Positions 19,011 through 36,900 are shown, numbered from the stretch's first letter. The stretch is 64,000 nt of DNA from Clostridia bacterium (GCA_017533565.1 JAFXHU010000015.1:640-64639), one strand, 5' to 3'. Notes: generated by a model from the sequence alone, not told the origin. Numbers and translations are program-made.

Positions 19011-21380
19011 TTATTTTTTATCCTCGTCAACTCGTTTCCAAAAGGCTTCGGTGCGCGCCTTCAATTCCTTTGCATCCCCGACGTATTTCATTCCCCGCCA
19101 AAGTGAGGGAATGCTTTTTTTGTATATGGGGTCGCGGAAGCGGTCGTCAATTAAAAGGATAACACCGCGGTCGTCCTCCGTCCTTATGACTCTGCCCGCC
19201 GCCTGAAAGACCTTATTCATTCCGGGGTAAAGGTAGGCGTATTCCGTGCCCGCCTCGTATTTATCGTTGAAATAGTCGCGCATTGACTCTCTTTCGTAGG
19301 AAAGGGTCGGCATACCTATACCGACGATAGCCGCGCCGATAAGACTGTCGCCCGTGAGGTCAACGCCCTCCGAATATATTCCGCCAAGCACGCAAAAGGC
19401 AATAAGATACTTGCCGTCGCAGTTTTTAAACTCGTCAAGGAATGCACGCTTTTCCTCGGCAGTCATATCCCGCTTTTGGATAACGGTGTGGAGCTTCGGG
19501 TACTTTTCGGTAAAGACTCCCGCCAAAAGCTCAAGGTATTCAAAGGAGGGGCAAAATATCATATAATGTCCGCGCCTTGCGCTTATCATAGCGGCAATTG
19601 CACGGCAAACGGCAGGGGCTGTGCGCTCTCTTTCGGAGTACCTTGTCGAAACCGAATCCACTATCGAAACCGAAAGCTGTGACGGGTCAAAGGGCGAGCC
19701 TGCGGTAAGGCTGTCGGTTGTGCCGTCCGCGCCGAGAAGCGAGCGATAATACACAAGCGGCTCAAGCGTTGCGGAGAAGAAAACGGCGGCATTTCCCGTC
19801 CTTACTCTGTCGGATATTACACCGCCCGTGTCAATGCAAAACAGGCGAAAATTTAACACGCCCCCCTCGTAAAATAGGAAAAGACGGTATTTCTCGTCAA
19901 ATTTTTCAAGCGATGTGCCAAGCTTTTTGAGCCTGTAATAAAGCTCCCGCAAAAGCAGCGTGCGCTCTGTTGCCTCTCCGTCCTTATCGCGAAGGGAGGC
20001 TCGGTATGCCGCCTCCGCATCGGCGAGAAAGGTGTAAACAATTGTGTACAAATCGGACGGCGGATTGTGAAGGCATACCGCCCCGACCTTCTCCCCTCTT
20101 TCTCTCTCGTGAAGCTCGTCGCGAAGGTAGGGGAAGAACAAGCCTTCTATGCTATCCCTTGCAGTCTTGATTGCCTCCCTGATTGCGGAGTGCTGCGGCA
20201 AAAGAGGATTTGAAAGCAGCTCGTCAAGCTCCCTTGTCGAAAGCTCGGAGGAATACATTTCTCTCGCCCTTTCGGGGAGGTTGTGCGCCTCGTCGATAAG
20301 ATAAACGTATCTTCCGCCCTCGGTAAAATACCGCTTAAGATAAATTTGCGGGTCAAAAAGGTAGTTAAAATCACAAATTACAACGTCGCAAAGCTCGGAG
20401 TAGCAGAGCGCAAGCTCGTGCGGACAAATGCCGTATTCCTTGCCGACTCTTTCGAAATCCGCGCGAAGCACGACCGCCTTGTTTAAATTGTAAAGTGAAA
20501 GAACTGCATCGGGTATCGACGAAAGGCTTGAAAGTCGGCAGCCGCCGTTTGGTCTGCGACAGGTAAGCCCCTCGGAGCAAAGCGTCTCCTTCGAATAGAG
20601 GATACACGCCTTTACCGTCACCCCCTGCGACGCAAAAAGCTCAAGGCATTCGCTTGCCGCACGTGCCGCCGTATGCTTTGGCGTGAGGTAAAATATTTTG
20701 TCGCACCTTCCCTCGCCGAGTGCGCGGAGGGCGGGGTACAAAACCGATACCGTCTTTCCCGTGCCGGTCGGGAGTGAAGCACAAAGCTGTGTGCCGTGTG
20801 CGATTGTGCGATGCACCGCGTGGATAAAATCCGACTGCCCCTCTCTTATCGCGGGATAGGGAAATTTCAACGCCCTGTATGCGGGAAGCCTTTCGCTTAC
20901 ACGCTCGATTTCGGGAGTGGCGTATTTTTCGCAAACACCGATGCATTTGCTGAAAAACCTTTTAAGCGCCTCTGCCTTCGGCTGCTCCCTTTCCTCACAA
21001 ATCAGCTCTCCGTCCGCATTGTAGTAACGCGTGCAAAGCTCGGCTTCTTTTTCCGCCCCGTACAAATAAAGCAGCAAAAAGCCCTCTGCGCGCGTTCTTT
21101 CTCTGTCCTCCCTCGGAAGCCTTTTTCCGAGCGTGTCAACCTTTCTTTCGAGGGTGATGACACCGTCCGAGATTTCCTCTGCGAGGCCGAAAATCTCCGC
21201 GGAGTATCCGAGGATAACCGTATTTCCCGAAAGCCTTATTTTTTTCGCCTCGGGATAAAGCTCGCGGGAATATTTTTTCGCCTCGTCCTCTCTTTCGGGC
21301 GCGGAAATGCCGCGGTGAGCAAGATTGACAAGCTCCTTGATATTAACCGAAAGCGTTTTGCTTTCCACGTCGTATCTCAT
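19011..21380 (-). CDS. DinG/XPD (Rad3)-family Fe-S DNA helicase
   Basis: PTGTGKT, four Fe-S Cys, DEAHN, SATL, SEGVD and QAAGRVIR..DDRG. Confidence 0.9.
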   Translation of the reverse strand: MRYDVESKTLSVNIKELVNLAHRGISAPEREDEAKKYSRELYPEAKKIRLSGNTVILGYSAEIFGLAEEISDGVITLERKVDTLGKRLPREDRERTRAEGFLLLYLYGAEKEAELCTRYYNADGELICEEREQPKAEALKRFFSKCIGVCEKYATPEIERVSERLPAYRALKFPYPAIREGQSDFIHAVHRTIAHGTQLCASLPTGTGKTVSVLYPALRALGEGRCDKIFYLTPKHTAARAASECLELFASQGVTVKACILYSKETLCSEGLTCRRPNGGCRLSSLSSIPDAVLSLYNLNKAVVLRADFERVGKEYGICPHELALCYSELCDVVICDFNYLFDPQIYLKRYFTEGGRYVYLIDEAHNLPERAREMYSSELSTRELDELLSNPLLPQHSAIREAIKTARDSIEGLFFPYLRDELHERERGEKVGAVCLHNPPSDLYTIVYTFLADAEAAYRASLRDKDGEATERTLLLRELYYRLKKLGTSLEKFDEKYRLFLFYEGGVLNFRLFCIDTGGVISDRVRTGNAAVFFSATLEPLVYYRSLLGADGTTDSLTAGSPFDPSQLSVSIVDSVSTRYSERERTAPAVCRAIAAMISARRGHYMIFCPSFEYLELLAGVFTEKYPKLHTVIQKRDMTAEEKRAFLDEFKNCDGKYLIAFCVLGGIYSEGVDLTGDSLIGAAIVGIGMPTLSYERESMRDYFNDKYEAGTEYAYLYPGMNKVFQAAGRVIRTEDDRGVILLIDDRFRDPIYKKSIPSLWRGMKYVGDAKELKARTEAFWKRVDEDKK

Positions 21381-21646
21381 ACGGCACCTCCTTCTTTTTT
21401 TCTATATTTTACACCAAAGCGAAGTCTGTTGTCAATACCCTTGCGCTCCACACGCTCTTTACCTTCGATAATTCCGTTTTCTGACCCGTTTGACAAAAAA
21501 AGCAAAGAGAATGCCGTACAAAGCCTCCGCCGCGTTTTTCTTTACCGAGTAGCGGCGGCTTATTCGCCCGCCGTATGCCGTGATTGCTCATTGCGCTCTG
21601 CCGCGTTTGTAATTACTTGCGGTTAGTGCCACCCCGTGTTAAATTT

Positions 21647-21679
21647 AAAAACAAAACCCCGCGGGAATTTCCCGCGGGG
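21647..21679 (-). terminator. Terminator closing the phage-like operon
   Basis: CCCCGCGGGAA/TTCCCGCGGGG stem followed by TTTTGTTTTT on the minus strand. Confidence 0.8.
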
Positions 21680-21708
21680 AAAGCCGTACGGCTTTTTTAA
21701 AAAGTAAA

Positions 21709-22551
21709 CTATGCGTTACATTGTGTACGCATAAACGCCTCTAAAAGCCGACATTTTACCTTCATCCATTCTATCTCTCTTTCGCATACGTAGCTATATC
21801 CTTGCGAATAGCCGCGAAGCGCAAATGCGGGCAAGGGGCAAAGCCTTAACAGCCCCTCTATGACCTCCGCCGCGCCAAGACCGTCCTTCACGCCAAGCAC
21901 CACCGACGCGGTAAATACCGTGCAAACCGTCGTTGGAATAAGCCTCACGCACAACCCGATGAGCTTCGGGCCTCGCGGGTTTTTAAGCTCGGCGCTGCTT
22001 CCTTTCTTGGTCGAGAGCAGTGTGCCTACTCCGAGTCTTACCGCCGAAAGCCGCCCTACGCGCCGAAAAAGTCTTTTATCCTTTTTCGTTACCGACCCAC
22101 CCGAAAGATACCCTTCGTAATCCGAAAGAGTTTTGCCGTTAAGCGAAAGCAGAGCCTCTTTTCTGTGCCGTAATTCCTCGTTTACGTATTTCTCGATAAA
22201 TTTTTGCAAATCGCCAATCATCTCCGCCTTTACTCCGTCGCAAAGCAGGGTAAGGCGCTCCGCCACCGCAATATATTCCTTGCTCTCTCTGCCGAGCGCC
22301 TCTCCCGCATCCTCGAGAGAAAAATAAATCACGTAGGACGCAACGAGTATCAGCAAAAGATTTGCGGTAAGCTCCTTTGCCCCGATTTCGTAAAAGCCGA
22401 TTTCGGTAAAGGTTACGAGAATTACGATAAGTGCGGTAAGCGCCGCAACCATCTTTCCGCAGTTTTTTATAAGTGCGGAGTAGCCGCGCTTTACCGTATC
22501 GACGCCGCTTAAAAGCGCATGCTCAAAATCGGTATCGGGGTTATTCTTCAT
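21709..22551 (-). CDS. Membrane protein (2 TM + soluble helical region + 2 TM)
   Basis: Hydrophobic pairs near both ends; ATG 22551 overlaps the upstream gene; last gene of the operon. Confidence 0.7.
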   Translation of the reverse strand: MKNNPDTDFEHALLSGVDTVKRGYSALIKNCGKMVAALTALIVILVTFTEIGFYEIGAKELTANLLLILVASYVIYFSLEDAGEALGRESKEYIAVAERLTLLCDGVKAEMIGDLQKFIEKYVNEELRHRKEALLSLNGKTLSDYEGYLSGGSVTKKDKRLFRRVGRLSAVRLGVGTLLSTKKGSSAELKNPRGPKLIGLCVRLIPTTVCTVFTASVVLGVKDGLGAAEVIEGLLRLCPLPAFALRGYSQGYSYVCEREIEWMKVKCRLLEAFMRTQCNA

Positions 22552-22909
22552 TTCTTCCGTATCTCCTTGCAAGTCTAAAAAGGACTGCGCCGATAACGTT
22601 GCCGACAAATCCTATAAAGGAAATTGTAAGCATCTCTGTCGCAATTCGGGAGGCAAGAAGGAAGATGAGAAAAATCGCAAGCCAGACGGAATAGCCCGAC
22701 GGCGATTTAAACAACTGTCGCACGAGCTTGAAAAGCGGCAGGAAGGCGACGAGCAGTAATAGCACCGCAATTCCGGATAAAAGGTATTCGCCTCCCTTGC
22801 TTACCCAAATCGGAAAATAGAGCAGCACGGAAGCTGCGGGCGGAATTACCGAAAAGGCAAGACCGAGCGCGTTAAGCAGTACGTAGCCTCTCGTGTTATT
22901 CGTTTTCAT
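22541..22909 (-). CDS. Small 4-TM membrane protein (holin-like size)
   Basis: 122 aa, mostly hydrophobic, basic C-terminus. Confidence 0.7.
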   Translation of the reverse strand: MKTNNTRGYVLLNALGLAFSVIPPAASVLLYFPIWVSKGGEYLLSGIAVLLLLVAFLPLFKLVRQLFKSPSGYSVWLAIFLIFLLASRIATEMLTISFIGFVGNVIGAVLFRLARRYGRNEE

Positions 22910-23639
22910 ACGCGAGGAGAGCCTCCCTCATTTCGGCGATTTTTGCACCTACCTCGTTCTTTTGATATTGCGGAAGCGAGGAGGTCATAAATATACCGTA
23001 AAGCATATCTATCTGCGCCGCAAGAATAACCTTAAGCTTTTGTCTTTCCTCCGCTTCCGAGCTTAACGCGGCAAGCCTTTCGGAAAGATTATCAACCGCG
23101 TCCTCGATTCCGCCGAGGCAGTCCTCCGCCTGTGCAAGCCTTTCGCATACCGCCCGCGACAGCTCGTCGGTCTTTAGCTCGCCGCGCTCTGCCGCCTCCT
23201 TTATGCCGGATACTGCGGAGGAAATTGCGCCAATCCCCTTTTTGACAATAGGCAAAAGTCCGCTTTTATACGCATAAGCGAGAATGAGCGAGCCGACAAA
23301 GGAGAGCAGGCAGAAAATCTCGGTTGCATATTCCTTGACGGTGTTGAAAAGCAGCTCGAAGGGATTTGTGCCTGCATTGCCCTCGGGCAAGTCGGACTCA
23401 CCGCTTTCCTTTGCGGCGCCTTCGTTATCCTCCGCCGCGGTTGCGTAGGTTGGGTCATCGGTGACGTCCTCGGAATTTGAAAAATCCGAGAGATGGGAGG
23501 TCGTTCCGCCCTCAAAGGCTTCGGCATATACCGTACCCCGTGTTAAATTTTTGGGGCTGTAATCGGCAAATGCAGTTACCCCGCCGAGCAGAACGGCAAG
23601 AATTGCCACCACCGTAAAAATGTAAATAATTCTTTTCAT
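22896..23639 (-). CDS. Signal peptide + acidic linker + TM + coiled-coil protein
   Basis: MKRIIYIFTVVAILAVLLGGVTAFA signal; TM around IFCLLSFVGSLILAYAY; heptad-like C-terminal region. Confidence 0.7.
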   Translation of the reverse strand: MKRIIYIFTVVAILAVLLGGVTAFADYSPKNLTRGTVYAEAFEGGTTSHLSDFSNSEDVTDDPTYATAAEDNEGAAKESGESDLPEGNAGTNPFELLFNTVKEYATEIFCLLSFVGSLILAYAYKSGLLPIVKKGIGAISSAVSGIKEAAERGELKTDELSRAVCERLAQAEDCLGGIEDAVDNLSERLAALSSEAEERQKLKVILAAQIDMLYGIFMTSSLPQYQKNEVGAKIAEMREALLAYENE

Positions 23640-24034
23640 TATCCAAACAGAGCGTTACCCTTTATTAGGGCGTAAAGCTCATTCGTCCTTTCTTTGATTT
23701 CTTTTATTTCGCCTTCAAGCGCCCTTATTCTCGAAAGGCTTATTCTGTGGATTTTATCCACCGTGGGGGCGGGTGTAATTCTCTCTCCCGTGATAATAAG
23801 CGGCTCAAGCAGAAGCTCGCCTCTTTCGGTAATAAGATACGGCGTGTAATGTCCGTCCCCCATTCCCTTCGTGCTAAAGCTTCCTCTGCCGTTTTGAATT
23901 TCCACCCGTCTTGGGCCTATCATAACAATGCCGCACGTGCCCTCGCCAAGCACAAGCTCTACGGCACTGCCCCTGCCCGAGATGCTTTTCCATTCGCCGT
24001 ATGCGGGAGTTAAAATATATTCAACCGTAATCAT
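23639..24034 (-). CDS. Hypothetical protein, beta-rich with C-terminal coiled coil
   Basis: Overlaps both neighbours (ATGA and TAATG junctions). Confidence 0.65.
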   Translation of the reverse strand: MITVEYILTPAYGEWKSISGRGSAVELVLGEGTCGIVMIGPRRVEIQNGRGSFSTKGMGDGHYTPYLITERGELLLEPLIITGERITPAPTVDKIHRISLSRIRALEGEIKEIKERTNELYALIKGNALFG

Positions 24035-24417
24035 GATTCAAGCTCCAATTTCTCAAGGCATCTGTCGATATCCTTGCGCAGGTTCGCAAGAAAATAAGCG
24101 AGATTTCCGTCCCCCACGGGAATATAGGCGAGTATTTTTCCGCTTCCGAACCAGTCGATAAAATCGCGAAGGCTGACCTCCTCGCCGAGTCCGACCTTTA
24201 TGGCGTGTGCAACGGAGTCAGCGCCCTCCGCCGAAATATCGTCGATAAGCTCGTTGAACCTTTGCATAAGGTAAAGCGGAAGTCTGTCGAATGCCTCCTT
24301 CATCTCCCTTGCGCTAAAGCCGCTGCCGCCGTATTCCTCGGGCGCTGTGGGGCGGTTGGGAAGTGATGCAACCTTAAGAAGCTCAATTTCCTCGTCGGTT
24401 ATTGTTTTTGCTTTCAT
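24031..24417 (-). CDS. Hypothetical protein resembling a tail-fibre N-terminal anchor
   Basis: VASLPNRPT...SAREMKEAFD segment; AGAAAGGA RBS; position after the nozzle gene. Confidence 0.5.
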   Translation of the reverse strand: MKAKTITDEEIELLKVASLPNRPTAPEEYGGSGFSAREMKEAFDRLPLYLMQRFNELIDDISAEGADSVAHAIKVGLGEEVSLRDFIDWFGSGKILAYIPVGDGNLAYFLANLRKDIDRCLEKLELES

Positions 24418-24429
24418 AATATTCCTTTC

Positions 24430-27087
24430 TTACGTGTGCTTAATCCGTCCTTTTATTTTGTATCTAAAGGATATGCCGTGAAGCGAAATCGGAGAGGACG
24501 GTGCCTCCGAATAAATTGCAATATCCTTTTCAATCCAATCCTTTTCCTTTTCGGCAACCGCAACGGTTTGGTCCATTTCGGGATTGAGCGAAAGGCGGGC
24601 AAAATCTATGTCCAAGAAGCAAAGAGCGCGTCCGCCAATACTAACGAATTCGGAGTATTTTCCCTTGTCGGTCGTGGCTTTGCAGGTGGGAAGCGCAACG
24701 GTTGCGCGTCCGAGCTTTACGGTGAGCGAGGATTTTACCGTGCTTTTGGTAAGATGCGGCACGCCGCAGTCGGTTTTTACCGTTTTGATGACGTAACGCG
24801 GAGCTATCCCGTCGAAGCTGTATAGGGAGGGGTGAAGCCTTCTGCCGTAAATCTCGCGGTATTCCGCCTCGGTTATTCCCATTCGGATAAGATAGTCCTC
24901 CGAGAGGGGGACGGAGCGCATGTCGTTATTGAAAACGAAAACCGTCCCGTTTGCCGTAAAGTAGAGCCTTCCGTCAACGGCAAGGTATTTTTCCGCCGCC
25001 ATAAAGTCGGTATAGCCGTATTCCTCGGTCGGGTAAACGGCGTATCGCGTTTCGCCCCCGTAGGTGAAGTAAAAGGTTTTTCCGTCCTTCGCGTAGGAGT
25101 AAACGGTAGTATCTACGGGCAAATCTGCGTATTCGGGAGAGAGCGAAAGCTCCGGGTCGGTAACGTAGGAGCAGTAGCGGTAAACCTGCTTTTTGCCGAG
25201 ATACGCACCTACTCCGTTGATTATGAACCACTCGTATTCGGTGCCGTTGTTTCTTCCCGTAAAGGTCGCGCGTGTGTCGGCAAGATAAATTCGCGAGTGG
25301 GAGCATACGGCAATATATCCCATCCAGTCGAAAAGCTGTGCCTCCGAAAGCCTCTCTCCGAGAAGGCGGGAGGTCACGTTTGAGGAGCGAAGGCAGATAT
25401 CTCTTTCAAGATTTGTCGCCTGCTTTTCTATTGCACAAAGTCCGCGCGGCGAGATAAAAAGCGGTGCATCCGCCGCGGCAACCGCCGCCCCGTGACAGCT
25501 TTCGCCCGAAAACGCATCGTAAACCGGATATATTCGCGGGAGAACGTCAATCCCCGTGTCCTCTCCCTTATGGAAAAAGATGCTGCCCATCGGGTCGTTT
25601 TCCTTTTTGAAAACGTAAAGCCCGTCACCTACCGAAAGAAGCGCGCTTACCGCTACGCCCTTTGAGCCGTCGTTAAAGTAGTTATGCTCGCCGAAATAAA
25701 GCGCAGAGGCTTCGCCAAAGCGGGTGCGCGAGCAATAAAATACCGTACCGGGGAGCTTCGGATTGCCCGCAAGGAAGACTCGCCCGTCGTAAAGGGCGGC
25801 TACCGTACAGCCCTCGATAAGCCCGCGACCGCTTATATCGCCGCCCTCGTCGCTGCCGTTAAAGCTCGAAAAAAGCTCGGGCAGACGTCCGCTTACGCAA
25901 AGGCGGGAGCCGTTGTACTGCCAATGCTTTTCAAGACGGAGGGTTATTCCGCAGGGCGCGCCCTCCTTGATTTTTACCTCGAAATCAACCGAAGCACCGT
26001 CAACAGTGACAAGCTCCACCGCATCGAATTTAGCGTTGAGAGGGAGATAAAGAGAGAGGGACTCGTCAACCGTGCCGTAAAGCTTTTCCGCCGCACCGAT
26101 TGCCTCCACGCCCTCGATTTTTGAAAGCTCCTCCGCCGTTCCCTCGTAATAAACCCGATTGAGGCTTAAGGAGGCGGCAAAGGCGGCAGCACCTATTCGG
26201 TAAAGCCCGCCTCGCAGGTACACCTCGCTTAAGGACGGACAGCTGTTAAACGCCGTATCGTCTATGACGTTGAGCGTGGATGGAGTGGACACCGTGCGTA
26301 TTCCGTCACAGCCGAAAAAGGACATTTTGCCGATTCTTCGCACACCCTCGCCGATTTTAACGGAGGTGATTTCGGTGTTGCCCCTAAACGCGCTGTCGGC
26401 AATTTCGTCAACTCGGTAAAGCACTCCGCCGATGCGCTTTCTTCCGGGAATAAAAACCTCCCCCGAAAGTCCCGCATCCGCACCGCTTACCGCACAGGTA
26501 AACGCCTCTGCATCGGTAATGCTGTAGCGAAGCTTGTCGCTTTCAGGCTCTAACTCGCGCCCATCGACAACGTCAAATTCCTCGGTTGTCGAGTCGGTAA
26601 GCAGGTTTCGCGCCTCAAGCCTCTCGCCGTTTAAATACAGCGTCGGAACGTAGGGCGGAGGCTCGGCATCGAGAACGGTATCCGCATCAAGCCTTTTGTA
26701 AAGCCTTCTTACCCTCTCGCCGTCGAGAATATAGGTGTGGTCCTCAAACGGAAAGCTGCAAAGCAGTTTTTGCGGAAGGCTTCCGCGGCTTTTGGGAGTG
26801 CCGCCCTCGCCGTCAAGGCTGTAAAGTGAGCCTCCCGACTGAACCAAAATGTCCCCGAAATGTGAAAGCATAGCCTCCACACTTGAGCCGAAAGCGGCGA
26901 GCCTCCTGTAGCCGGGCACACTTACTATCGCGGAGGGCGTGTCGCTTTCGTAGTCGCGAAACACGTTCTCGCAGTAGGCAAGACGGCTTTTAACCGAGCT
27001 GTTTCCCTCGGGTGCGATTCCGCGAAAGCCCGAGAAGCTTTCGGTATATTCGGCGGTTGATTTGATGATGTTTCTCATTTTAGCCAT
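24430..27087 (-). CDS. Putative tail nozzle/stabilisation protein (P22 gp10 / T7 gp12 position) with BspA-type LRR insert
   Basis: N-terminal FSGFRG, propeller-like segments (GRVFLAGN, LYVFK, PLFISPRG), and internal repeats I...AF..C..L..V. Confidence 0.65.
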   Translation of the reverse strand: MAKMRNIIKSTAEYTESFSGFRGIAPEGNSSVKSRLAYCENVFRDYESDTPSAIVSVPGYRRLAAFGSSVEAMLSHFGDILVQSGGSLYSLDGEGGTPKSRGSLPQKLLCSFPFEDHTYILDGERVRRLYKRLDADTVLDAEPPPYVPTLYLNGERLEARNLLTDSTTEEFDVVDGRELEPESDKLRYSITDAEAFTCAVSGADAGLSGEVFIPGRKRIGGVLYRVDEIADSAFRGNTEITSVKIGEGVRRIGKMSFFGCDGIRTVSTPSTLNVIDDTAFNSCPSLSEVYLRGGLYRIGAAAFAASLSLNRVYYEGTAEELSKIEGVEAIGAAEKLYGTVDESLSLYLPLNAKFDAVELVTVDGASVDFEVKIKEGAPCGITLRLEKHWQYNGSRLCVSGRLPELFSSFNGSDEGGDISGRGLIEGCTVAALYDGRVFLAGNPKLPGTVFYCSRTRFGEASALYFGEHNYFNDGSKGVAVSALLSVGDGLYVFKKENDPMGSIFFHKGEDTGIDVLPRIYPVYDAFSGESCHGAAVAAADAPLFISPRGLCAIEKQATNLERDICLRSSNVTSRLLGERLSEAQLFDWMGYIAVCSHSRIYLADTRATFTGRNNGTEYEWFIINGVGAYLGKKQVYRYCSYVTDPELSLSPEYADLPVDTTVYSYAKDGKTFYFTYGGETRYAVYPTEEYGYTDFMAAEKYLAVDGRLYFTANGTVFVFNNDMRSVPLSEDYLIRMGITEAEYREIYGRRLHPSLYSFDGIAPRYVIKTVKTDCGVPHLTKSTVKSSLTVKLGRATVALPTCKATTDKGKYSEFVSIGGRALCFLDIDFARLSLNPEMDQTVAVAEKEKDWIEKDIAIYSEAPSSPISLHGISFRYKIKGRIKHT

Positions 27088-27088
27088 A

Positions 27089-27922
27089 TCACGCCCACCC
27101 GTTCGTTTTGTATTGCCTGTCGCGGGACGGAGGCTCTATGCGCTTCAGCCTGTTGATTCCGTCGCGGTAGAGTGCCATATAGTACTGCGCCTTTCCCTCG
27201 TCGTCGTCAAGCCATACGAAGGAGGCGACGAGCAGGGGGAAAAGCTGCTCCGTACCCGCGGGAAGGTCGAGTGCCTCCGCGTTCTTTTGAGGTGCGGCGG
27301 GAGTCCTGCAGTATTCTATTTCAATCTCTCCGTCGAGCGTGAAGGGAAGGTAAAGCCTTCCGCCCCGCGCCGTAAGCTCAAGCCCCGACATATTACCGCT
27401 TACGCAAATCGGCGTGCTTGAAAGATGGCTGAAATTTCCGATAAGGAGGGAAAGGTCAACTGCTCTTTTCTCCGAATACTCGGGAACGTCGCGAAGCGAT
27501 GCGAAGCCGCCATCAAAGGATGCGAGCGCGGTTATCTCGTAGTCAACCGCACCGCTAAAGCGGATAATTCCCCGACCGCTTGGGAGTGCGCCGCTTACAA
27601 CTCCGCTTGCACGGCTGAAGGCTTGAAGCTCCTCCGTTTCTCCGCCGATTACGGTGTATTCGCCCTCACCGCTCGGGCGAAAGGAAAAGGCACTGCCGTA
27701 AAGCTCGTATTCCTCCGTCCTGCCTCCCGTGTGGCATACGTTTTTGTAAAGCCGAGTCATTCGCGGTGCGCGAACGTAAATCCTTTTGATATCGGTTTGC
27801 GGAGCGTCGAGGTTAATTATGGCAAGCGCGCGCTCGGTGGCGCGAAAAAACGCATCGTCGTCGGAAACCGTTCTCTCAAAGCCAAGTCCCGCGACCTGTG
27901 CCTTTAATTCATTGTAGGTCAT
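27089..27922 (-). CDS. Putative head-tail adaptor (P22 gp4 / T7 gp11 position)
   Basis: MTYNELK start after AAGGAG; C-terminal LFPLLVASFVWLDDD..KAQYY...Y helix; follows the capsid gene. Confidence 0.6.
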   Translation of the reverse strand: MTYNELKAQVAGLGFERTVSDDDAFFRATERALAIINLDAPQTDIKRIYVRAPRMTRLYKNVCHTGGRTEEYELYGSAFSFRPSGEGEYTVIGGETEELQAFSRASGVVSGALPSGRGIIRFSGAVDYEITALASFDGGFASLRDVPEYSEKRAVDLSLLIGNFSHLSSTPICVSGNMSGLELTARGGRLYLPFTLDGEIEIEYCRTPAAPQKNAEALDLPAGTEQLFPLLVASFVWLDDDEGKAQYYMALYRDGINRLKRIEPPSRDRQYKTNGWA

Positions 27923-27954
27923 ATTTCTCCTTTCTTCAAAAAGATTTAGAATAA

Positions 27955-27979
27955 CGGGCGCCAAGCTAAATGGCGCCCG
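27955..27979 (-). terminator. Hairpin after the capsid gene (probable attenuator of tail genes)
   Basis: CGGGCGCCA-loop-TGGCGCCCG followed by TTATTCT on the minus strand. Confidence 0.6.
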
Positions 27980-27986
27980 AAGAGAA

Positions 27987-29039
27987 TTAGTCCGCGAGAG
28001 CCGTTGCCGTTTCGAGAGCCTCCTCGTCTGCGGTAACCTTAAGAATATGCTTATAGCTACCGAAGCCAAGGCTGAAGCGGCATCTTCCCGTCCAGTTGTA
28101 ATTGCCCGTGTGATGGTCAATCCAAGAGCTTACCGTAAGGGGAACACGCTCGAAGAACAGGTTGCCGCCGAGAGCCTTGTTTGCCTCGGAGGACATAATA
28201 ATCATTTCGTCGCAATCCGCGTTCCAGGTGGGAATCACGATGATATTCCAATTGCCGTAATGAATATTTACGTCGTTATTTGCGGTGCCTACCGCGTTTT
28301 CGGAGCCGCAAATCTGCTTTATCATCTTCTCAAGCTTCGGCTGGTTGCCGGGGAGGATAATGGTGTCTGCCACGTATCCCGTGGGGTCGCCGTTTTCGTC
28401 CTTCATATTTCGGAGCGCTGCCGCAAGGCTGTAAAGAGAGTTCTCCGCCTTTTCGATGGAGTAGCTTCCGTTTGCTCTTGCAAAATCGCCGTAGAAGTAG
28501 TTGGACTGGTTACCGCTTGCCTCTTCGTAGCCCCAGTAATGATTGCGGTGGAAAAGCGGCATACCGTCGGGGGAGGTGGTTGAGATGCGTGCGCCCGCAA
28601 AGTTAATAAAGGCGGAATTTGCACAGGAAATCGCGCTGGCGCAAGCCTTGTTGATTGTTTGGTAATAGCTTCTTACGAAGTTCTGGATTCGTCTTTTCGC
28701 TTCTGCGGCAATACCGAAGTTTGCGTCCTCCATCATCTCCGCGGTGATGGTAAACTCCTTCATAAACTGAAGATGCTCGATGCTCATTGTGAAGGTTTCT
28801 GCAACGCAGTCGTTGACGGCTGCACCGCCCTCGGGCACGTAGTCGAAGCAGTTAAAGCCCTTTTGAACGATGACGGTTTCGGCAAAATGATTGCTCTTTT
28901 CCTTGTTGAAAAGCCAATCGCAAATGCCGCCCTTCTTTTTCATAAGGTCGCTTTCATGCTCGATAAGCATCTTAATCGGCGTGTCGAGTCTGCCTATCGC
29001 GCCGTCGCCCATATACTGTGATTTAGAATAAATAATCAT
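27987..29039 (-). CDS. Major capsid protein (HK97 fold, Mu gpT-like)
   Basis: 350 aa; V.EGG, F.IT.EM.ED, DG.PLF..NH and R...GF motifs; strong AAGGAG RBS; follows the scaffold. Confidence 0.75.
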   Translation of the reverse strand: MIIYSKSQYMGDGAIGRLDTPIKMLIEHESDLMKKKGGICDWLFNKEKSNHFAETVIVQKGFNCFDYVPEGGAAVNDCVAETFTMSIEHLQFMKEFTITAEMMEDANFGIAAEAKRRIQNFVRSYYQTINKACASAISCANSAFINFAGARISTTSPDGMPLFHRNHYWGYEEASGNQSNYFYGDFARANGSYSIEKAENSLYSLAAALRNMKDENGDPTGYVADTIILPGNQPKLEKMIKQICGSENAVGTANNDVNIHYGNWNIIVIPTWNADCDEMIIMSSEANKALGGNLFFERVPLTVSSWIDHHTGNYNWTGRCRFSLGFGSYKHILKVTADEEALETATALAD

Positions 29040-29054
29040 TTTTTTCTCCTTTTT

Positions 29055-29621
29055 TTAATTTGTTACTCTTTTATAAAGGTTGTAAATTTGTGAATCGGAA
29101 AGTCCCGAAAGGATTTCCCTTGCAACCGAAAGCTCCGCACGCGACATTGCTCCGCGGGGAGCGCCCGCGGTCTGCGAAACCGCACTCGAAAGGTGCGCGC
29201 GTCCGTCCCTTTTCTTCGCTCTGTGCGAGGTGGCGAGGTAAGCCTCGATTGCGGTAAGCCCGAGGTCGCGCAGGGCGGCGTAGCGCATAGCACCCGAAAG
29301 CTCGGATATGTCACGAAGCTCCGAAAGCTCGGGAAAATTCGCCCGAAGCACCTCAAGGTCCTCTCTCATTATTCTCTCGTAATCCACCTCGGCTGCGGGA
29401 GTGGAGTCCGTGTCCTCCGCATCGCTCAAGCTTGACTCTGCGGCGTAGCCGTCGGTCATATCAGCCGTCCCTGCCTCTGCCTCGGGTGCGGAGCCGCTTG
29501 CACCGTCGGACTGTCCGACGTCCTCGGTATTCTCTTGGCTTATCGGCTGTACCTTTGCCTCTGTGTCCGAATTCAACTCGGGCGAAACCGTATCTATGCC
29601 GTATCCTGCGCTGTTATCCAT
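29055..29621 (-). CDS. Putative capsid scaffolding protein
   Basis: Acidic, disordered N-terminal half, helical C-terminal half ending LSDSQIYNLYKRV; directly before the capsid gene. Confidence 0.6.
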   Translation of the reverse strand: MDNSAGYGIDTVSPELNSDTEAKVQPISQENTEDVGQSDGASGSAPEAEAGTADMTDGYAAESSLSDAEDTDSTPAAEVDYERIMREDLEVLRANFPELSELRDISELSGAMRYAALRDLGLTAIEAYLATSHRAKKRDGRAHLSSAVSQTAGAPRGAMSRAELSVAREILSGLSDSQIYNLYKRVTN

Positions 29622-29758
29622 TACTTCTTACCCGTGCGAAGGTCGCCCTTTCCGACGATTTTTTCTCCCTTGGGGGAGTTATTTGACTTGCTTGGCGCCT
29701 TTACCATTCCGTAGCCAAGCTCGCGGTAAGCGTTTTTGCTTTCTGCGTTCTTTTTCAT
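29621..29758 (-). CDS. Small basic protein (45 aa; absent from ORF track)
   Basis: GAAAGGA RBS; MKKNAESKNAYRELGYGMVKAPSKSNNSPKGEKIVGKGDLRTGKK; TAATG overlap with the scaffold start. Confidence 0.7.
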   Translation of the reverse strand: MKKNAESKNAYRELGYGMVKAPSKSNNSPKGEKIVGKGDLRTGKK

Positions 29759-29781
29759 TGTTTTATCCTTTCTTGCTTGTT

Positions 29782-30486
29782 TTATTTTGTGTTTGCAATG
29801 CCTTTAAGCTCGTCTGTATAGCCTGCGCTTTTTCCCTTGTCGAGAAAGCGTCCCGTCTGCCACACAAGCTCGTTAATATCCTCCTCGAGAAGACCCATTC
29901 TCGCCGCGTAGCTTCGTATTGCCGCCTCGTCCATATAGGAGGACTGCGCCGCGATTATGCACTTGTCGAATACGCTGTCGCGCAGGGCGCGGTAAACGTT
30001 TGCGCTGACGGTTGCGGCATCCTCGGGCGAAAGCCCCTTGTCTATGCCTATTGCGTAGGTTTCGTCAAGCCGCATTATTCCAAAGCCTACGAGCTGTGAC
30101 TCAAGGCTTTTCATTTTGCTGTCCCGGGTGCTTCTGTATTTTTGAAGATAGTCCTCGTATCCCGCCTGTGCGGTTATATATTGATTTTCCATTCTCTCGC
30201 CCGCCGCGCTTACGCTTGCGAGCTGCTTTGCGCGTGCCGCCTCCTCAAGATACTCCGCGTAGCCTCCGCCCGAAAGTCCGCTTCGCGCCAAAAGCTCCGC
30301 CTGCGTGCCGTAATTTGCCGAGTCGGAAAGCTGTGCGTTGATTGCGCTCCTAACCGCGGCGGAGTAATCCGAAATCGGATTGATGCCCTTTGCGCTCATA
30401 TATTCGGAGAGGGATTTTGCACTCGCGGAGCTTTTGAGTCCGCGCCGCTGCTTAAGAAATTCCTCGAGCGATTTCGCTTCCTTCAT
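29782..30486 (-). CDS. Ala-rich helical protein, possible internal virion/ejection protein
   Basis: YG.QAE.LA.SGLSGGGY..Y segment; overlaps the portal 3' end; AAGGAG RBS. Confidence 0.55.
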   Translation of the reverse strand: MKEAKSLEEFLKQRRGLKSSASAKSLSEYMSAKGINPISDYSAAVRSAINAQLSDSANYGTQAELLARSGLSGGGYAEYLEEAARAKQLASVSAAGERMENQYITAQAGYEDYLQKYRSTRDSKMKSLESQLVGFGIMRLDETYAIGIDKGLSPEDAATVSANVYRALRDSVFDKCIIAAQSSYMDEAAIRSYAARMGLLEEDINELVWQTGRFLDKGKSAGYTDELKGIANTK

Positions 30487-32266
30487 AGACCGCGTTCTCC
30501 TTTCTTAAAGCGTCGGTGAAATATTCGACGTTCTCTCTTGCGTGCGGATAGTGCGCTCGCTCCTGACTTTGCCAATAGCGAAGAAGGGTAACCGTGCTGC
30601 TCGGGTCGCCGAGAGTCCCCGCCTTCAGGTTTTCGAGGTTTCTTTGCCAAAGCGCCTCTCTTTGATAATCCGCGCCCTCGTTTCTGTCCGCGGAGAATAG
30701 GTAGGCATCGTCGTAGTAATACTCGCCGCGTATTCGGTCGTATTCAATAAAATCGTAGCGGTTGAATTCCGCGGAGTGTATTCTGCCGTATGCGTCCTTG
30801 TAGGAAAGGCGTCGCGGCTCGTCCGCGAAGGCGAGATAAAGCGTGAAAATGATTTTATCAAGCTCTGCGTAAGCCGCCTCCTTCATTCTTCGCTTGGATT
30901 CAAGCCTGCCCGTAGCCTGCGAAATTCGCAGCTGCTTTGCAACACCCGACTCGGTTACCGCGGTGTCTATGCCCTGGTAGGCGTCGGAAATGCCGATAAC
31001 CCTCTTTGCGTGGTCGTAAAGCCTCTCCGCCTCCGCAATATCCTGGCTTATATCGGGGGTGGTATCCACCTTTCCGTATTGAGCCGCGCTCTCTCCGGGC
31101 TTCATTCTTATAACCTGACCGAATACCGAATTATTGAGCGAAACCGTGGCGTCCTCGGGAACTATGGGTGTAATTCCCGCGCGTATGAGCTTTTCGAGAA
31201 TACGGCTCTCGATTTTGTTGATTGCCTGCTGCTCGGGGCGTATGTACTCGCAGTCCGAGCCGCCGAAAAGCGATGCCTCGCGAGAGGTGTTCTTTCTTAC
31301 AACGACGGGAAAATGCTTTGGAACGTAGTAGGGAAGGGAGGTTCGCTTTTTCTGAACCTCGCCGTTTTTGATTACGGGCGCGCCGCCCTCCGTAATCGGA
31401 GTGCTGGCTCGCAGGACGCTACCGCCCGCGGAAAATACGTCGTCGGAAAGAAGCTCGTAAAGGAGGTTACCCTCCGCCGCCTTAACTCCGCATTCGCATT
31501 CGCCCTCCGCCGCACCGCATTTCGGGCAAATCCGCCCCTTGCGGTAATAGTATTTCGGAAGGTGCGAAAGCTCCACGTCGCCCGTGAAAAGGTATCTGCA
31601 AACGTCGCCGTCGTCGTCCTTGTAAAAGCAGACGATAAGATTTACGGCGTCCCCCTCGGGCACGCCCGTGTCGTATTCGTAGCAAAGCTCCGCCGCGTCA
31701 AGCTCCTCCGCGCTCTTGCCGTAGCTTCTCGAAAGCTCGCCCTTCGTGGTGGTGAACTTGAGGAAAAGGTATTCCATATCCTCTATTTTGAAGATGCCGG
31801 GCTGCGGAATTATGTCCTTCGGCGAAAGGCAATGCACCTTCACCGTGCCAACCTCACCGAGATATTCGGAGCTGTTATCCCATTCCACGTACCACACGCT
31901 ACCGCCGTAAATATAGGTATAACGCTCGTCGATGTCGTTAAGCTCGTCGAACGGAAGCCGCATTCTCACCGCACGGCAAAGCCTTTCGATGGACGCGGCG
32001 TTACGCTCTCTTGACTCGCTGTACGAGCTTGCGTCCGCCTTTGGCATAGGAATGTCGGAGGAAACCTGGCTTTCCACGATTTCGTATGTGATGTTTCTCA
32101 CCGTGAGCGCTGCCTCGGTTGAGCCGTCGATTGCCGTGTCACCCATATACTGGCGCATATTCCTCTCGCATTCGGAAAAGGTTTCCTGTGCGGCGGTTAA
32201 GGCTCTTTCGTAAAGCGTGCTGAAAAAATCGAGGCGCAGCTCTTTTGTACTGTTTTCAATTTTCAA
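30452..32266 (-). CDS. Portal protein
   Basis: About 600 aa following TerL; ISDAYQG....ESGVAKQL...QATGRLESKR stem segment; TTG start overlaps the TerL stop. Confidence 0.8.
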   Translation of the reverse strand: MKIENSTKELRLDFFSTLYERALTAAQETFSECERNMRQYMGDTAIDGSTEAALTVRNITYEIVESQVSSDIPMPKADASSYSESRERNAASIERLCRAVRMRLPFDELNDIDERYTYIYGGSVWYVEWDNSSEYLGEVGTVKVHCLSPKDIIPQPGIFKIEDMEYLFLKFTTTKGELSRSYGKSAEELDAAELCYEYDTGVPEGDAVNLIVCFYKDDDGDVCRYLFTGDVELSHLPKYYYRKGRICPKCGAAEGECECGVKAAEGNLLYELLSDDVFSAGGSVLRASTPITEGGAPVIKNGEVQKKRTSLPYYVPKHFPVVVRKNTSREASLFGGSDCEYIRPEQQAINKIESRILEKLIRAGITPIVPEDATVSLNNSVFGQVIRMKPGESAAQYGKVDTTPDISQDIAEAERLYDHAKRVIGISDAYQGIDTAVTESGVAKQLRISQATGRLESKRRMKEAAYAELDKIIFTLYLAFADEPRRLSYKDAYGRIHSAEFNRYDFIEYDRIRGEYYYDDAYLFSADRNEGADYQREALWQRNLENLKAGTLGDPSSTVTLLRYWQSQERAHYPHARENVEYFTDALRKENAVYEGSEIARGIS

Positions 32267-33630
32267 AGTGGTTCTCCGTATTTTGATTTTAGATATTTTC
32301 TGCCCGCCTCGTTTGCCGTGGCGTAGTCCTCCCACATATCCTGCGACCACCTCGTGCGCCTGACGCTTTTGCTCTCGCTCGGCGGGCGGGTGTGAAAGAT
32401 TGCAAAGCCGCGAAGTGCATCGGGTGCGTGGGTTATGGCGTGCGGCTCGGTGGAGCAGTCGGTCGGACGCACCCTGTCAACCGAGAGGGCGGGCAGACAG
32501 CGTATTATCTCGGTGCAGTTGTTGAAGATTTTGAGCCGCGGTCCGTCCTCCCCGTCGCGGAGCAGCTCCTTCACGGCAAGCCAGCCGCATTCCCTGTCGT
32601 TGGAGGTTTTCGTGAAATGAACCCCGAACTCGGCGAAAAGTCCCGACTTGGTTTTACCCGTTTCCTGGCTTCTCGAAAAGAGGTCGGGAGGTGCAAGGGT
32701 GGCGTAGATATCCTCGCCCGCGGGCGTCCTCTCGGTTATCGCCCTCGCCGCCGCGCTTATCGGGAGGTTGCTCTCGCAATATTCGCGGTAAAGGTAAACC
32801 CTGCCGTCGGGCGCAATCGCAAGCCAAAGCACCGCAAGGCGGTCAAGTCCGTAGTCAACCGTTCTGTATCTGCGCCATTCCGACGGAATTTCAAAGGGTG
32901 CAACCGTGTGCTTTGCCACCGAAAACTCCGAAAAGTACTGTCCGTCGAAGATGTTCCAATCTCCGAGAAGAAGCGCGCGTCTTTCCCTTTCGGGGAGGTT
33001 TTTAAGGCGCTCCTTATACGCGGGGTCGCTTTGCATAAGGAATTTGTTGTCCTCGACGAAGGAGGGAATGAATATTCGCTTCATTCCGCCCTCTCCCTCG
33101 AAGGTCTTGCCCGCGGGTGCGGCATCGACGAACCTTTCCTTTACCCAGGTATGACCTACGCCGCCGGGGTTTGTGGAGGACTTAATCTGCTTTGGATAGG
33201 AGTTCGCTCCCCTCACTCGCGATATGAGGTAAACGTACTGCATTTCGGTGAAGTGGGTTAATTCGTCAAAGCGTATTACGTCGTATTCCGCGCTTTGATA
33301 CTGGTACACGTCGTTTTCTCCCGCACAGTAGCCGAAATCGATAACCGACCCGTTTTTGAATTTCCCCGTATGTGTTGACGAGTTAAGCGTGAATATCTCC
33401 CGCGGATAAAGCGAAAGGGCACAGCGGATAAGCGATTTTTCAAGCTCCGCATAAGTCCTTCGCAATATGAGCTGTCTTGAGCGCGGGTATTTGAGAGCGA
33501 AAAGGAGTGCGTCAACCATTTGTCCGTAGGACTTTCCGCCGCCCGCCGCCCCGCCGAAAAGCACCTCGCTCTCGGTCGCGTCGATAAACCGCTTCTGCTT
33601 TTTCGTTACCGATATATTAAGCCTCCTCAC
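32263..33630 (-). CDS. terL: Terminase large subunit
   Basis: Walker A GGAAGGGKS, LILRRT, Walker B FDELTHF, STNPGG.GH.WVK, nuclease VDYG and H.PDALR. Confidence 0.93.
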   Translation of the reverse strand: MRRLNISVTKKQKRFIDATESEVLFGGAAGGGKSYGQMVDALLFALKYPRSRQLILRRTYAELEKSLIRCALSLYPREIFTLNSSTHTGKFKNGSVIDFGYCAGENDVYQYQSAEYDVIRFDELTHFTEMQYVYLISRVRGANSYPKQIKSSTNPGGVGHTWVKERFVDAAPAGKTFEGEGGMKRIFIPSFVEDNKFLMQSDPAYKERLKNLPERERRALLLGDWNIFDGQYFSEFSVAKHTVAPFEIPSEWRRYRTVDYGLDRLAVLWLAIAPDGRVYLYREYCESNLPISAAARAITERTPAGEDIYATLAPPDLFSRSQETGKTKSGLFAEFGVHFTKTSNDRECGWLAVKELLRDGEDGPRLKIFNNCTEIIRCLPALSVDRVRPTDCSTEPHAITHAPDALRGFAIFHTRPPSESKSVRRTRWSQDMWEDYATANEAGRKYLKSKYGEPL

Positions 33631-33964
33631 CGACTACCTCCACCGTAACGGTAAGCGGCTCCGTGCCGAGCGATTCTCTTTCCTCGCCCATACCGTATTC
33701 CGCGGAAAGGATGAATTTCGTCATAGAGGCGTCCTGCTTCTTGCCAAGCGCGCTGTCAATAAGATAATCTCTTCGGATTTCGCTGCATTCCTCACAGGCA
33801 CGTCTGAATTCCTTTTTCTGCTCCTTAAAGCACAATACGTCGGCGAGTGTAAGACCCGCTTCTCTTGCAAATTTCGAAAGGCTTGGCGCACCCATTCCCC
33901 CAAAATTGAGAAAGTAGGTGTAAAGCCTTCTCGGTAAATCCTTCGTGTACCTTGCCTTTTTCAT
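33617..33964 (-). CDS. Putative terminase small subunit
   Basis: 115 aa, HTH-like N-terminus (PSLSKFAREAG) then helical region; AGGAGG RBS; immediately upstream of terL. Confidence 0.7.
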   Translation of the reverse strand: MKKARYTKDLPRRLYTYFLNFGGMGAPSLSKFAREAGLTLADVLCFKEQKKEFRRACEECSEIRRDYLIDSALGKKQDASMTKFILSAEYGMGEERESLGTEPLTVTVEVVGEEA

Positions 33965-34012
33965 TAAGTCCTCCTACACGGGGAAATCTCGAGCTTTCCC
34001 TCGTGTGAGTCC

Positions 34013-34041
34013 ATTTTACACGCCCAATTTCCGTTTGTAAG
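34013..34041 (-). promoter_or_regulatory. Candidate promoter of the virion operon
   Basis: CTTACA-17 bp-TAAAAT on the minus strand, followed by a 5' leader hairpin (33976-34006) and AGGAGG. Confidence 0.45.
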
Positions 34042-34593
34042 TATCAGAGCATTCCAAAATTCACCTCATTTTTCACTCCTTTCGTTGTAAGGACTGCACA
34101 AAAACCGAGGCAGGCTAACCCGAAAAAGCCCGAAAATAGCTCCGAAATTTGACACCTTTGGGGCACTTTTTTGACCCCCGAAAATTGAACGAAATCCCTT
34201 ACGGTGCAAGGGTTTTCGGCGCGTTTTAGCAAAAAACGAAAATGCGAATTTGACACTTTTGAGAGCCAATTTTTGGTAAAAACGCACTTTTTTCAAAAAA
34301 ATCGCAAAAAAAAATCCCCTTTCTTGCAAAAAGGGGGCGGCAAATCAAAATAAGAAGTCGGGGTAAAGCAAATGGCGGTTACGGCGGTAAAGCAAAATGA
34401 GAGTCCGAGGCAAGGTGAGGTGACGAACGGGGGTAATGCAGACAAAAGGAGGTGATGTCGGCAAATTTATGTAATGGCGGCAAAGGGAAAAAAGCGGTTA
34501 AAGCCTTTGCCCGTGCGCTTGATTTCGGCTTTGGGGCAAAAAAAGAAGGGCAAACGGAAAATCCGTCTGCCCGGCTCTGTAAATATTGCGCTT

Positions 34594-36753: not shown

Positions 36754-36835
36754 AATATGCTCCATTCTGCCGCCGCGGCGGCTTTTTTTGCTTTAATTTT
36801 CCAAGCCTGTTTTGTTGTCTTTTAAGCTATTGCCG

Positions 36836-36900
36836 TTTTTGTCTGTGCTTTTACCTATGGTCTTTTTGTCTGTGCTTTTACCTATGGTCTTTTTGCCTGT
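36836..36900. repeat. 27-bp tandem duplication (2 exact + 1 partial copy)
   Basis: TTTTTGTCTGTGCTTTTACCTATGGTC at 36836 and 36863, partial at 36890. Confidence 0.9.

Follow-up and report, generated by a model that had tools for sequence, protein, structure and literature searches.

A conserved podovirus-type particle operon in a genus of uncultured gut Clostridia, a candidate gene transfer agent

To our knowledge, few gene transfer agent (GTA) lineages have been recognized, and nearly all understanding of them comes from Alphaproteobacteria. For RcGTA, the regulators, the small head, and the dependence on competence genes of the recipient are known. PBSX of Bacillus subtilis is a host-controlled defective phage that packages host DNA and is released by lysis, and it resembles in these respects what we propose below, while the capsid-forming phage-inducible chromosomal islands (cf-PICIs) are satellites with an integrase, a primase/replicase, a regulator, and a capsid module that carry no tail genes. 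The first podovirus-like gene transfer agent of a human gut Firmicute was reported in 2026; this FpGTA of Faecalibacterium prausnitzii forms 40-nm particles with about 8.5 to 9 kb of packaged host DNA, its operon proteins were seen by proteomics, and PBSX is named in that report as the earlier Gram-positive example (Nat Commun 2026, PMC12946183). Here, we describe an operon of 14 genes (hereafter the block) in a stretch of 64,000 nucleotides (the window) from the genome assembly of a Clostridia bacterium (GCA_017533565.1, JAFXHU010000015.1:640-64639). Comparative sequence evidence makes it probable that the block is a domesticated remnant of a podovirus-type phage, a single host-resident operon that has retained only the genes for building a DNA-filled particle and probably for releasing it and that works as a gene transfer agent (viriform), and the nearest variant of this reading is a PBSX-like particle that does not transfer DNA. 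An earlier note on the window had likewise preferred a domesticated short-tailed GTA-like system over random prophage decay, and this preference is supported by the genus-wide presence of the block, its intactness, its co-divergence with the host, purifying selection, and a sister clade of phages.

Genus-wide retention and vertical descent of the block

The block occupies positions 21709–33964 on the minus strand and consists of 14 open reading frames (ORFs) of one orientation that form an operon of about 12.3 kb in the order terS, terL, portal, g4, g5, scaffold, capsid, adaptor, nozzle, g10 (fibre anchor), g11, and g12 to g14 (membrane proteins). Most of these co-oriented genes overlap, as had been noted before for many of them: judging from the ORF coordinates, 8 of the 13 junctions do so, by 14 nt (terS/terL), up to 88 nt (terL/portal), 35 nt (portal/g4), and 1 nt (g5/scaffold) on the head side and by 4 nt (g10/g11), 1 nt (g11/g12), 14 nt (g12/g13), and 11 nt (g13/g14) on the tail and membrane side. 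No rival long ORF with family support was found in this interval. Host genes flank the block on both sides, with a DinG-type helicase, PNP, LuxS, and ProRS on one and a GH78 rhamnosidase and an ABC-F protein on the other. In its gene content, the block matches gene transfer agents in that it comprises particle genes and no genes for replication, integration, or lysogeny: there is no integrase, replication gene, or regulator gene in its inventory, nothing of the mobility or replication kind lies beside it, and a repeat search found no direct repeats bracketing it. The features of a temperate prophage (integrase or recombinase, replication or lysogeny module, terminal att repeats) are therefore all missing from the block, in line with what the earlier note had claimed. 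The assembly of 1.71 Mb (77% complete) has a single tyrosine integrase, encoded on a different contig, and no match anywhere to the PF07508 “Recombinase” domain of large serine recombinases; the window is free of tRNA genes, and Rfam gave 0 matches at E up to 0.1 over positions 21000–35000.

The capsid gene is found as a single full-length copy in 33 of the 36 other species of the genus. One of the three capsid-negative species has the portal gene, and the genomes of the other two are 72% and 76% complete; among other genus genomes of at least 90% completeness, 73 out of 79 encode the capsid. The expectation that related genomes would share the same block without patchiness is thus borne out within the genus. 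By comparison, the family's remaining genera gave 0 capsid genes in 26 genomes and other families of the order 1 in 24. A capsid profile run over a 400-genome draw across the order matched 28/401, including both sampled genus genomes and one genome of a sister genus, and elsewhere in the order the occurrence of the capsid is patchy and genus-wise. In a species-level genome collection there are 265 capsid-encoding loci, the best 80 of which all come from metagenome-assembled genomes (MAGs) of uncultured gut bacteria, mostly of ruminants or other animals as judged by their titles.

To compare whole blocks, the window proteins were mapped to the surroundings of the capsid gene (about 20 kb) in 31 genomes of the genus. 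These loci agree in gene order apart from one species with permuted halves, and the large ORFs are full length, so that the lack of visible gene breakage remarked on in the window extends to the genus. The capsid protein measures 342–354 aa and the portal 571–658 aa in 31/31 loci, TerL measures 450–463 aa in 30/31, and the nozzle has at least 813 aa in 27/28, with the remaining TerL and nozzle copies each cut by a contig end. Possible stop codons in the portal matches of three fragmented MAGs (G005, G002, and G027) fall at joins of match pieces on short contigs. Across the 31 loci, identity to the window is 63–81% for TerL, 46–80% for the portal, 47–65% for the capsid, and 25–42% for the nozzle; the host neighbour DinG is 44–50% identical in the nine loci that have a full-length copy. 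The block might in principle be a cryptic prophage remnant without function that has simply not decayed yet, and most of the phage genome is indeed gone. However, its large ORFs are intact in all 31 loci at 47–81% protein identity, and neutral decay over such divergence would have broken genes, which contradicts a neutral remnant; the promoter is conserved as well, and dN/dS (the ratio of nonsynonymous to synonymous substitution rates) is far below 1 in every gene measured. We consider this explanation highly implausible.

Co-divergence was assessed with a tree of TerL, portal, and capsid and a tree of RpoB and RpoC for the same 26 taxa, both built by a quick LG+G4 search. Genomes in which RpoB is partial or missing (G001, G012, G018, G025, G026, and G028) or the block is fragmented (G002, G005, and G027) were left out, and for G023, which has two rpoB copies, the copy on the long contig was used. 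The element and host trees have 14 of 23 splits in common, compared to a mean of 0.23 and a maximum of 3 under label permutation, and their patristic distances correlate with r = 0.68, a value reached by 0 of 2000 permutations (Mantel test). The comparison of particle-gene and species trees that had been suggested for this locus therefore comes out as congruent, with the element evolving at about 1.8 times the rate of RpoB and RpoC. In 30 species with host GC ranging from 45 to 63%, block and host GC rise together (r = 0.95), and the block lies above the host sample in 25 of these 30 species, by a mean of 1.7 points.

Selection was estimated gene by gene in a species pair with unsaturated dS (0.4–0.8), where dN/dS is 0.058 for TerL, 0.08 for the capsid, 0.10 for g13, and 0.11 for the portal, followed by 0.19 for the nozzle, 0.28 for the fibre, 0.31 for the adaptor, and 0.40 for the scaffold. 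A second close species pair gave similar values, with an overall range of 0.03–0.40 and 0.03–0.11 for terminase and portal. There is thus no sign of relaxed selection, and the block shows both vertical inheritance with its host and purifying selection, as gene transfer agents do. The same comparative evidence would equally be expected of a PBSX-like defective phage that makes DNA-filled particles for bacteriocin-like killing, lysis, or the release of extracellular DNA without productive delivery, and none of it separates transfer from non-transfer. Similarly, the fibre region is strongly species-variable (g10 homologues of 96–1122 aa), which fits any kind of surface recognition including that of a killing particle. 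Against this stands that terminase and portal are the most conserved components and that a complete conduit of adaptor and nozzle has been kept, which argues that DNA packaging and a delivery channel both matter. A non-transferring particle seems unlikely compared to a gene transfer agent.

As in the window, 13 genomes have ABC-F, DinG-PNP-LuxS-ProRS, or both beside the block. Gut-metagenome contigs from three independent studies bridge both junctions between block and host into the same host genes, and 0 contigs skip the block; this count uses contigs only, which makes depth uninformative, and two runs with identical figures were counted once.

The operon is bounded, as proposed previously, by one candidate promoter and one strong terminator. 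The former (34013..34058, minus strand) reads TTTGGAA, 8 nt, (T/A)ATACTTAC, 17 nt, TAAAAT and coincides with a promoter-scan match at 34041-34013, and the latter (21657..21679, minus strand) is an intrinsic terminator at the operon end with a 10-pair stem, 9 pairs of which are G-C, and a subsequent T-run, TTTTGTTTTT. Of the 24 regions 5' of terS that were examined, 14, all from the window's subclade, have the promoter as a three-part motif (TTTGGAA, 8 nt, (T/A)ATACTTAC, 17–18 nt, TAnAAT; in short TTTGGAA-N8-TATACTTAC), and its −35 position is non-canonical yet conserved. The motif has a single occurrence in the whole assembly and was not found in two phage genomes. Its conservation, its uniqueness in the assembly, and its absence from the phage genomes may point to a dedicated regulator acting in trans. 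The 600-bp leader 5' of the promoter contains GTGTCAAAT(T) twice on the minus strand (34155-34165 and 34256-34266), and it also has two extra terminator-like hairpins (34336-34316 and 34212-34196). These GTGTCAAA leader repeats were dropped as a regulatory lead, having not been found upstream of terS in 23 other species.

Predicted gene products and particle assembly

Searches with Pfam and PHROG over the window proteins and a structural model of the nozzle upheld most of the gene identities given in the earlier note, namely terS, terL, portal, capsid, adaptor, and nozzle, while its “scaffold” and “helical protein” go by position and composition and have no family match. The small terminase TerS (33617..33964; 115 aa) matches phrog_3064 (terminase, 3.6e-8) and weakly, below the cut-off, Pfam GP3_package (0.0023), and it aligns with residues 109–187 of the 197-aa TerS in the phage record G437 described below. 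Around 85–108 N-terminal residues are missing relative to the phage TerS, yet an HTH-like (helix-turn-helix-like) segment is kept, and we make no claim that loss of a TerS DNA-binding domain causes non-specific packaging here, an explanation that has been reported for RcGTA and FpGTA. The large terminase TerL (32263..33630; 455 aa) is recognized by Terminase_3 (2e-13), Terminase_6N (1e-11), and phrog_979 (1e-49), and the portal (30452..32350; up to 632 aa, true start uncertain) by phrog_156 (3e-32) with sub-threshold matches to P22_portal and SU10_portal. Next to the portal lies g4 (29782..30486; 234 aa, function unassigned), which has no Pfam or PHROG match and tblastn matches in 14 genus loci; its residues 6–114 are similar to the N-terminus of a 767-aa protein encoded 3' of the portal in phage G437. 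It is followed by g5 (29621..29758), an ORF of 45 aa with no PHROG match and tblastn matches in 4 other genus loci.

The probable scaffold (29055..29621; 188 aa) is proposed because it precedes the capsid gene and has an acidic N-terminus of low complexity. It is present in 31/31 genus loci with 144–207 aa and is thus shorter than the counterpart of phage G437 (188 vs 297 aa), which for a small head is only suggestive. The major capsid protein (27987..29039; 350 aa) matches phrog_371 (major head protein, 1.5e-9), and its relatives carry PF25209 Phage_capsid_4; the ESM Atlas offered only generic Mu-gpT/Phage_capsid_4 viral clusters, a PDB-sequence profile search 0 matches, and tblastn against 50,697 named phage records 7 weak matches of 23–28% identity, none informative about function. 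Directly 3' of the capsid stop codon lies a hairpin (27955..27979, minus strand) of 9 pairs, 8 of them G-C, with a weak T-tail, a possible candidate attenuator.

The head-to-tail adaptor (27089..27922; about 277 aa) reaches Pfam SU10_adaptor at 8e-6 with 26.9 bits against a cut-off of 27.0. The open frame continues to 28120, but the alignment with orthologues starts at about residue 60–67; it is placed between capsid and nozzle in all loci examined, and a PDB-sequence profile search with it found nothing below E 0.12. The adjacent tail nozzle (24430..27087; 885 aa) has an inserted BspA-type leucine-rich repeat (LRR) domain at residues 226–321 (LRR_5, 3e-16), through which alone it found matches in the PDB-sequence profile search. 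An AlphaFold2 model built from 25 orthologues (predicted local distance difference test score, pLDDT, 85.6; predicted template modelling score, pTM, 0.76) was compared to the PDB with Foldseek, and every one of the best matches is a nozzle or tail protein of a podovirus (cyanophage A4, Carin-1, T7 gp12, Kp9, SU10, and P22 gp10; E 2e-17 to 1e-9). With an adaptor and a nozzle modelled in the T7 gp12/P22 gp10/SU10 fold, the block thus has the genes for a tail of the podovirus type. The 14 ORFs include no spare one for a tape measure, tube, or sheath, and the short-tailed type without tape measure that had been proposed from gene order agrees with this inventory and with the structural matches.

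Further towards the operon end, g10 (24031..24417; 128 aa) appears to be the conserved N-terminal anchor of a variable fibre, with conservation confined to the first ~100 residues, and presumably has a receptor-binding role. Pfam found no domain in ten long g10 homologues apart from coiled-coil noise in one. In phage G437, the g10 homologue has 527 aa, and the genes after it encode a tail protein and the reverse transcriptase of a retroelement. The same variable region contains g11 (23639..24034; 131 aa), which has no family match and was found in only 3 other genus loci.

The operon ends in three genes for membrane proteins: g12 (22896..23639; 247 aa) has two hydrophobic segments and a coiled-coil tail, g13 (22541..22909; 122 aa) is holin-like with four hydrophobic segments and is conserved in 22 genus loci as well as in phages G437 and G438, and g14 (21709..22551; about 280 aa, ORF open to 22608) is a helical protein with three hydrophobic segments. 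Presumably, g13 is a holin. The model of g14 is all-helical (pLDDT 75) and matched no PDB fold better than E 0.4, and for this reason its weak likeness to alpha-pore-forming toxins and ABC transporter helices is not taken as evidence. A distantly similar membrane cassette was found on contig C2 of the same genome, where one ordinary-looking prophage (about 300-34300) has the only tyrosine integrase of the assembly (C2:377-817), a second TerL-like gene (C2:15831-16286), and ORFs of 1017 and 853 aa, a size typical of long tails; PHROG found no match for 8 of the 10 ORFs scanned in its late half. This prophage ends in ORFs of 238, 133, and 294 aa, the first and third of which match g12 (E 0.001) and g14 (E 0.009) distantly and in the same order. 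The g14 equivalents of a deeper subclade of the genus are closer to the C2 copy (E 1e-17 to 1e-28), and the late genes of phage G437 likewise end in g13 and g14 homologues. Since long-tailed and short-tailed phages alike have the cassette as the last part of their late operon, it is most simply a lysis module, and we find it rather likely that g12 to g14 are a holin-type lysis cassette; a role as ejection proteins is a less favoured alternative. If the operon is active, g12 to g14 would represent an undescribed kind of lysis or delivery module.

Taken together, these gene products suggest how a gene transfer agent might operate. The conserved and unique promoter would be switched on by a host regulator encoded elsewhere, and TerS and TerL, going by their strong conservation, would drive DNA through the portal into a capsid assembled on the scaffold. 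The packaged substrate would be the host chromosome, cut by headful, because no replicating or excising phage genome is available. Adaptor, nozzle, and the species-variable fibre would complete a short tail, and the membrane proteins g12 to g14, most likely as a holin-type lysis cassette, would release the particles.

Several observations concern the immediate surroundings. A promoter-like site of DinG itself lies beyond the operon terminator (21435-21406), and on the other side the GH78 gene upstream of the block ends in its own terminator (34572-34548). This rhamnosidase gene (34594-36765) separates ABC-F from the block in this species and looks like a later insertion, because ABC-F directly precedes terS in several other species (directly 5' of it in at least 6). 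Between GH78 and ABC-F, a 27-nt unit forms two perfect tandem copies (36836-36889) with a degenerate third at 36920-36946, and one metagenome contig has one 27-nt copy fewer there.

Phage relatives and observations against a gene transfer agent

Relatives of the block in IMG/VR are of two kinds, short block-only contigs with capsids of 53–58% identity and larger contigs with capsids of 43–46% identity. Two of the latter have direct terminal repeats and are rated complete, G437 (45,377 bp) and G438 (48,036 bp; loci L160 and L153 for the pair). Like the block, these podophages encode homologous TerS, TerL (42–47%), portal (43–45%), scaffold, capsid (44%), adaptor, nozzle, fibre anchor, and g13 in the same order, and G437 additionally has g4-like and g14 homologues. 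Unlike the block, they have about 30 kb more DNA, and their TerS of 197 aa and scaffold of 297 aa compare with 115 aa and 188 aa in the block. Besides the block genes, G437 (L210-L212) carries a replication initiator, RecT, a RecE-like exonuclease, RusA, PAPS reductase, and a DDE integrase, with a polyvalent protein of roughly 3800 aa (PBECR3/PBECR5 nucleases, ART-PolyVal, GNAT) between portal and scaffold. The tail protein and reverse transcriptase adjoin its fibre genes, which suggests a diversity-generating retroelement. G438 carries a tyrosine integrase.

We placed these relatives in a capsid tree of 62 rows rooted on relatives from other families, for which 16 of 37 IMG/VR loci were taken (large-contig phage-type records and hand-picked others with a capsid match of more than 280 residues). 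All genus copies and the sister-genus copy form one clade (SH-aLRT, Shimodaira–Hasegawa-like approximate likelihood ratio test, 96), and its sister clade (95) comprises 13 viral contigs together with a capsid that one genus genome has as its second copy (G004, locus L044). This pattern and the gene content of the phages fit a single capture followed by the loss of about 30 kb. As the L044 copy sits in the phage clade, related active phages still infect the genus and lysogenize block-bearing genomes. In the assembly that contains the window, tblastn with the ORFs of G437, G438, and L044 found no second podovirus-type cluster. A distant relative of the block occurs in another family of the order (G042, G094, and G113; L032, L202, and L203), with 29–31% identity in the capsid and 32% in the portal; there, portal and capsid genes are only about 2 kb apart, the relative is present in 4 of 6 genomes of that genus, and its flanks are common to two species. 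It may be a second, separate genus-wide retention.

Some of our results weigh against a host-resident gene transfer agent. The capsid gene is absent from 6 of the 79 high-quality genomes (these being 90–96% complete), and the element tree fails to recover 9 of the 23 host splits. A weaker capsid match (E 1e-141 to 1e-160) was found in five genus genomes, as a second copy in four (G004, G449, G464, and G493) and as the only match in G468, and the block may occasionally be replaced by recombination with related active phages. Base composition had been described as host-like, and this is only roughly so: against 300 random equal-length host windows, block GC (53.1% vs 49.8% in the genome) falls in the 99th percentile and tetranucleotide distance in the 91st. 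Pfam and PHROG recognize no peptidoglycan hydrolase in the block. There are 0 RNA runs among the 20 runs on record that hold the stretch, all of which are metagenome contigs. If the head keeps the roughly 45-kb capacity of the phage relatives, the 12-kb operon could fit into it, unlike in classical gene transfer agents. Finally, the deeper subclade (RpoB identity of 70–76% vs 80–94% in the first group) has the block at other loci, and on contig C14 of genome G014 (L015 with L047) it is circularly permuted, running from scaffold to g14, then terS-terL-portal and then an 805-aa pectate-lyase-like ORF, all on one strand and between host genes. These other loci and the permutation indicate past movement or rearrangement.

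Such mobility could also be that of a minimal satellite or helper-dependent phage which packages itself and is moved by a helper or by host recombination. With a size of 12–15 kb and a terS, terL, portal, and capsid of its own, the block is reminiscent of capsid-forming satellites; related active phages exist in the same genus, and IMG/VR lists fragments of the block as viral. Those fragments contain only the block, however, and no integrase, primase, replication gene, or att repeat is found in or beside it. Its tree is congruent with that of the host, its locus is common to 13 genomes, no excision joint was found in the three metagenome studies, and, unlike cf-PICIs, it has tail genes of its own (adaptor, nozzle, and fibre). 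Even in the deeper subclade, the genes on either side of the block are host genes with orthologues in the window's genome. Ten flank ORFs there are without such orthologues, six of which belong to ordinary cellular families (argininosuccinate lyase, PASTA kinase, symporter, lysyl-phosphatidylglycerol synthase, metallo-beta-lactamase, and pectate-lyase-like protein) and four have no Pfam match; integrase or replication families account for 0 of the 10. In the loci with sufficient flanking sequence, the block is hence not found inside full prophages, as the earlier note had anticipated, and we judge a satellite to be quite unlikely.

A more specific scenario for a gene transfer agent is tentative and, in our view, rather doubtful in its entirety. 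It would be an independent, ancient domestication of a 45-kb podophage with a polyvalent protein at the base of a large uncultured genus of animal-gut Clostridia (Oscillospirales by inference) that has co-diverged with its host since, giving a new viriform family unrelated to FpGTA with a single complete operon, a non-canonical, hydrolase-free release cassette, a dedicated conserved promoter, and a head that perhaps carries its own operon. If true, the element could spread itself as well as host genes.

Comparison with known systems

PBSX differs from the block in being myovirus-like, in having its own repressor, sigma-like late activator, and amidase endolysin, and in not being known to transfer DNA productively. 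Gene transfer agents of the RcGTA type (PMC9662315, PMC5721377, PMC7360931) are like the block in forming a head-and-tail cluster without replication or integration genes, in their vertical inheritance and purifying selection, and in a GC content at or above that of the host; RcGTA is unlike it in being siphovirus-like, with a tape measure and tail tube, and is not homologous.

The closest likeness in gene content and host is to FpGTA: chromosomal genes for TerS, TerL, portal, scaffold, capsid, and short-tail-type proteins in gut Clostridia, a near-ubiquitous presence in its own genus, no prophage context, and a proposed podovirus-like morphology (PMC12946183). FpGTA is split into operon I (10.5 kb, ten ORFs) and operon II (5.5 kb) about 125 kb apart, the second of which encodes baseplate, fibre, receptor-binding protein, and a canonical holin and endolysin, whereas the block is one 12.3-kb operon of 14 ORFs with no recognizable endolysin and nothing of a two-operon layout (PMC12946183). 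The published FpGTA accession numbers imply a single gene between portal and capsid, compared to three in the block (PMC12946183). FpGTA particles have been observed, while the block is known from its genes and is compared here to FpGTA (RCH50849.1, RCH50851.1) by gene content and layout. When profiles of the genus capsids were used, the search recovered proteins of the genus itself and no others. Two distant capsid relatives served as further queries, one from a human-faecal “Bacteriophage sp.” record and the other from a genome of a different family, and among the named entries of the best 120 matches for each, most entries being nameless, there was neither a Faecalibacterium name nor an RCH accession; the matches listed include Gemmiger, Allofournierella, Ruthenibacterium, Intestinibacillus, Enterenecus, Pseudoflavonifractor, and 43–45 kb Caudoviricetes contigs.

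Literature on gene transfer agents and podoviruses in Clostridia, the rumen, Oscillospirales, and Ruminococcaceae yielded no description of the present element, and in full-text searches FpGTA is named only in PMC12946183. Because a podovirus-like gene transfer agent, which the earlier note does not mention, has already been published with FpGTA (PMC12946183), the novelty of the block is lowered; the block would add a second case from gut Clostridia, if it is indeed a gene transfer agent. Provided that it is active, it would give an abundant group of uncultured herbivore-gut bacteria a built-in means of exchanging genes. Beyond what is on record for FpGTA, the block comes with a dense comparative record of more than 70 species, a host-congruent tree, gene-by-gene estimates of selection, and a sister clade of phages, and since this free-living sister clade has been identified, the genes shed on domestication can be read off.

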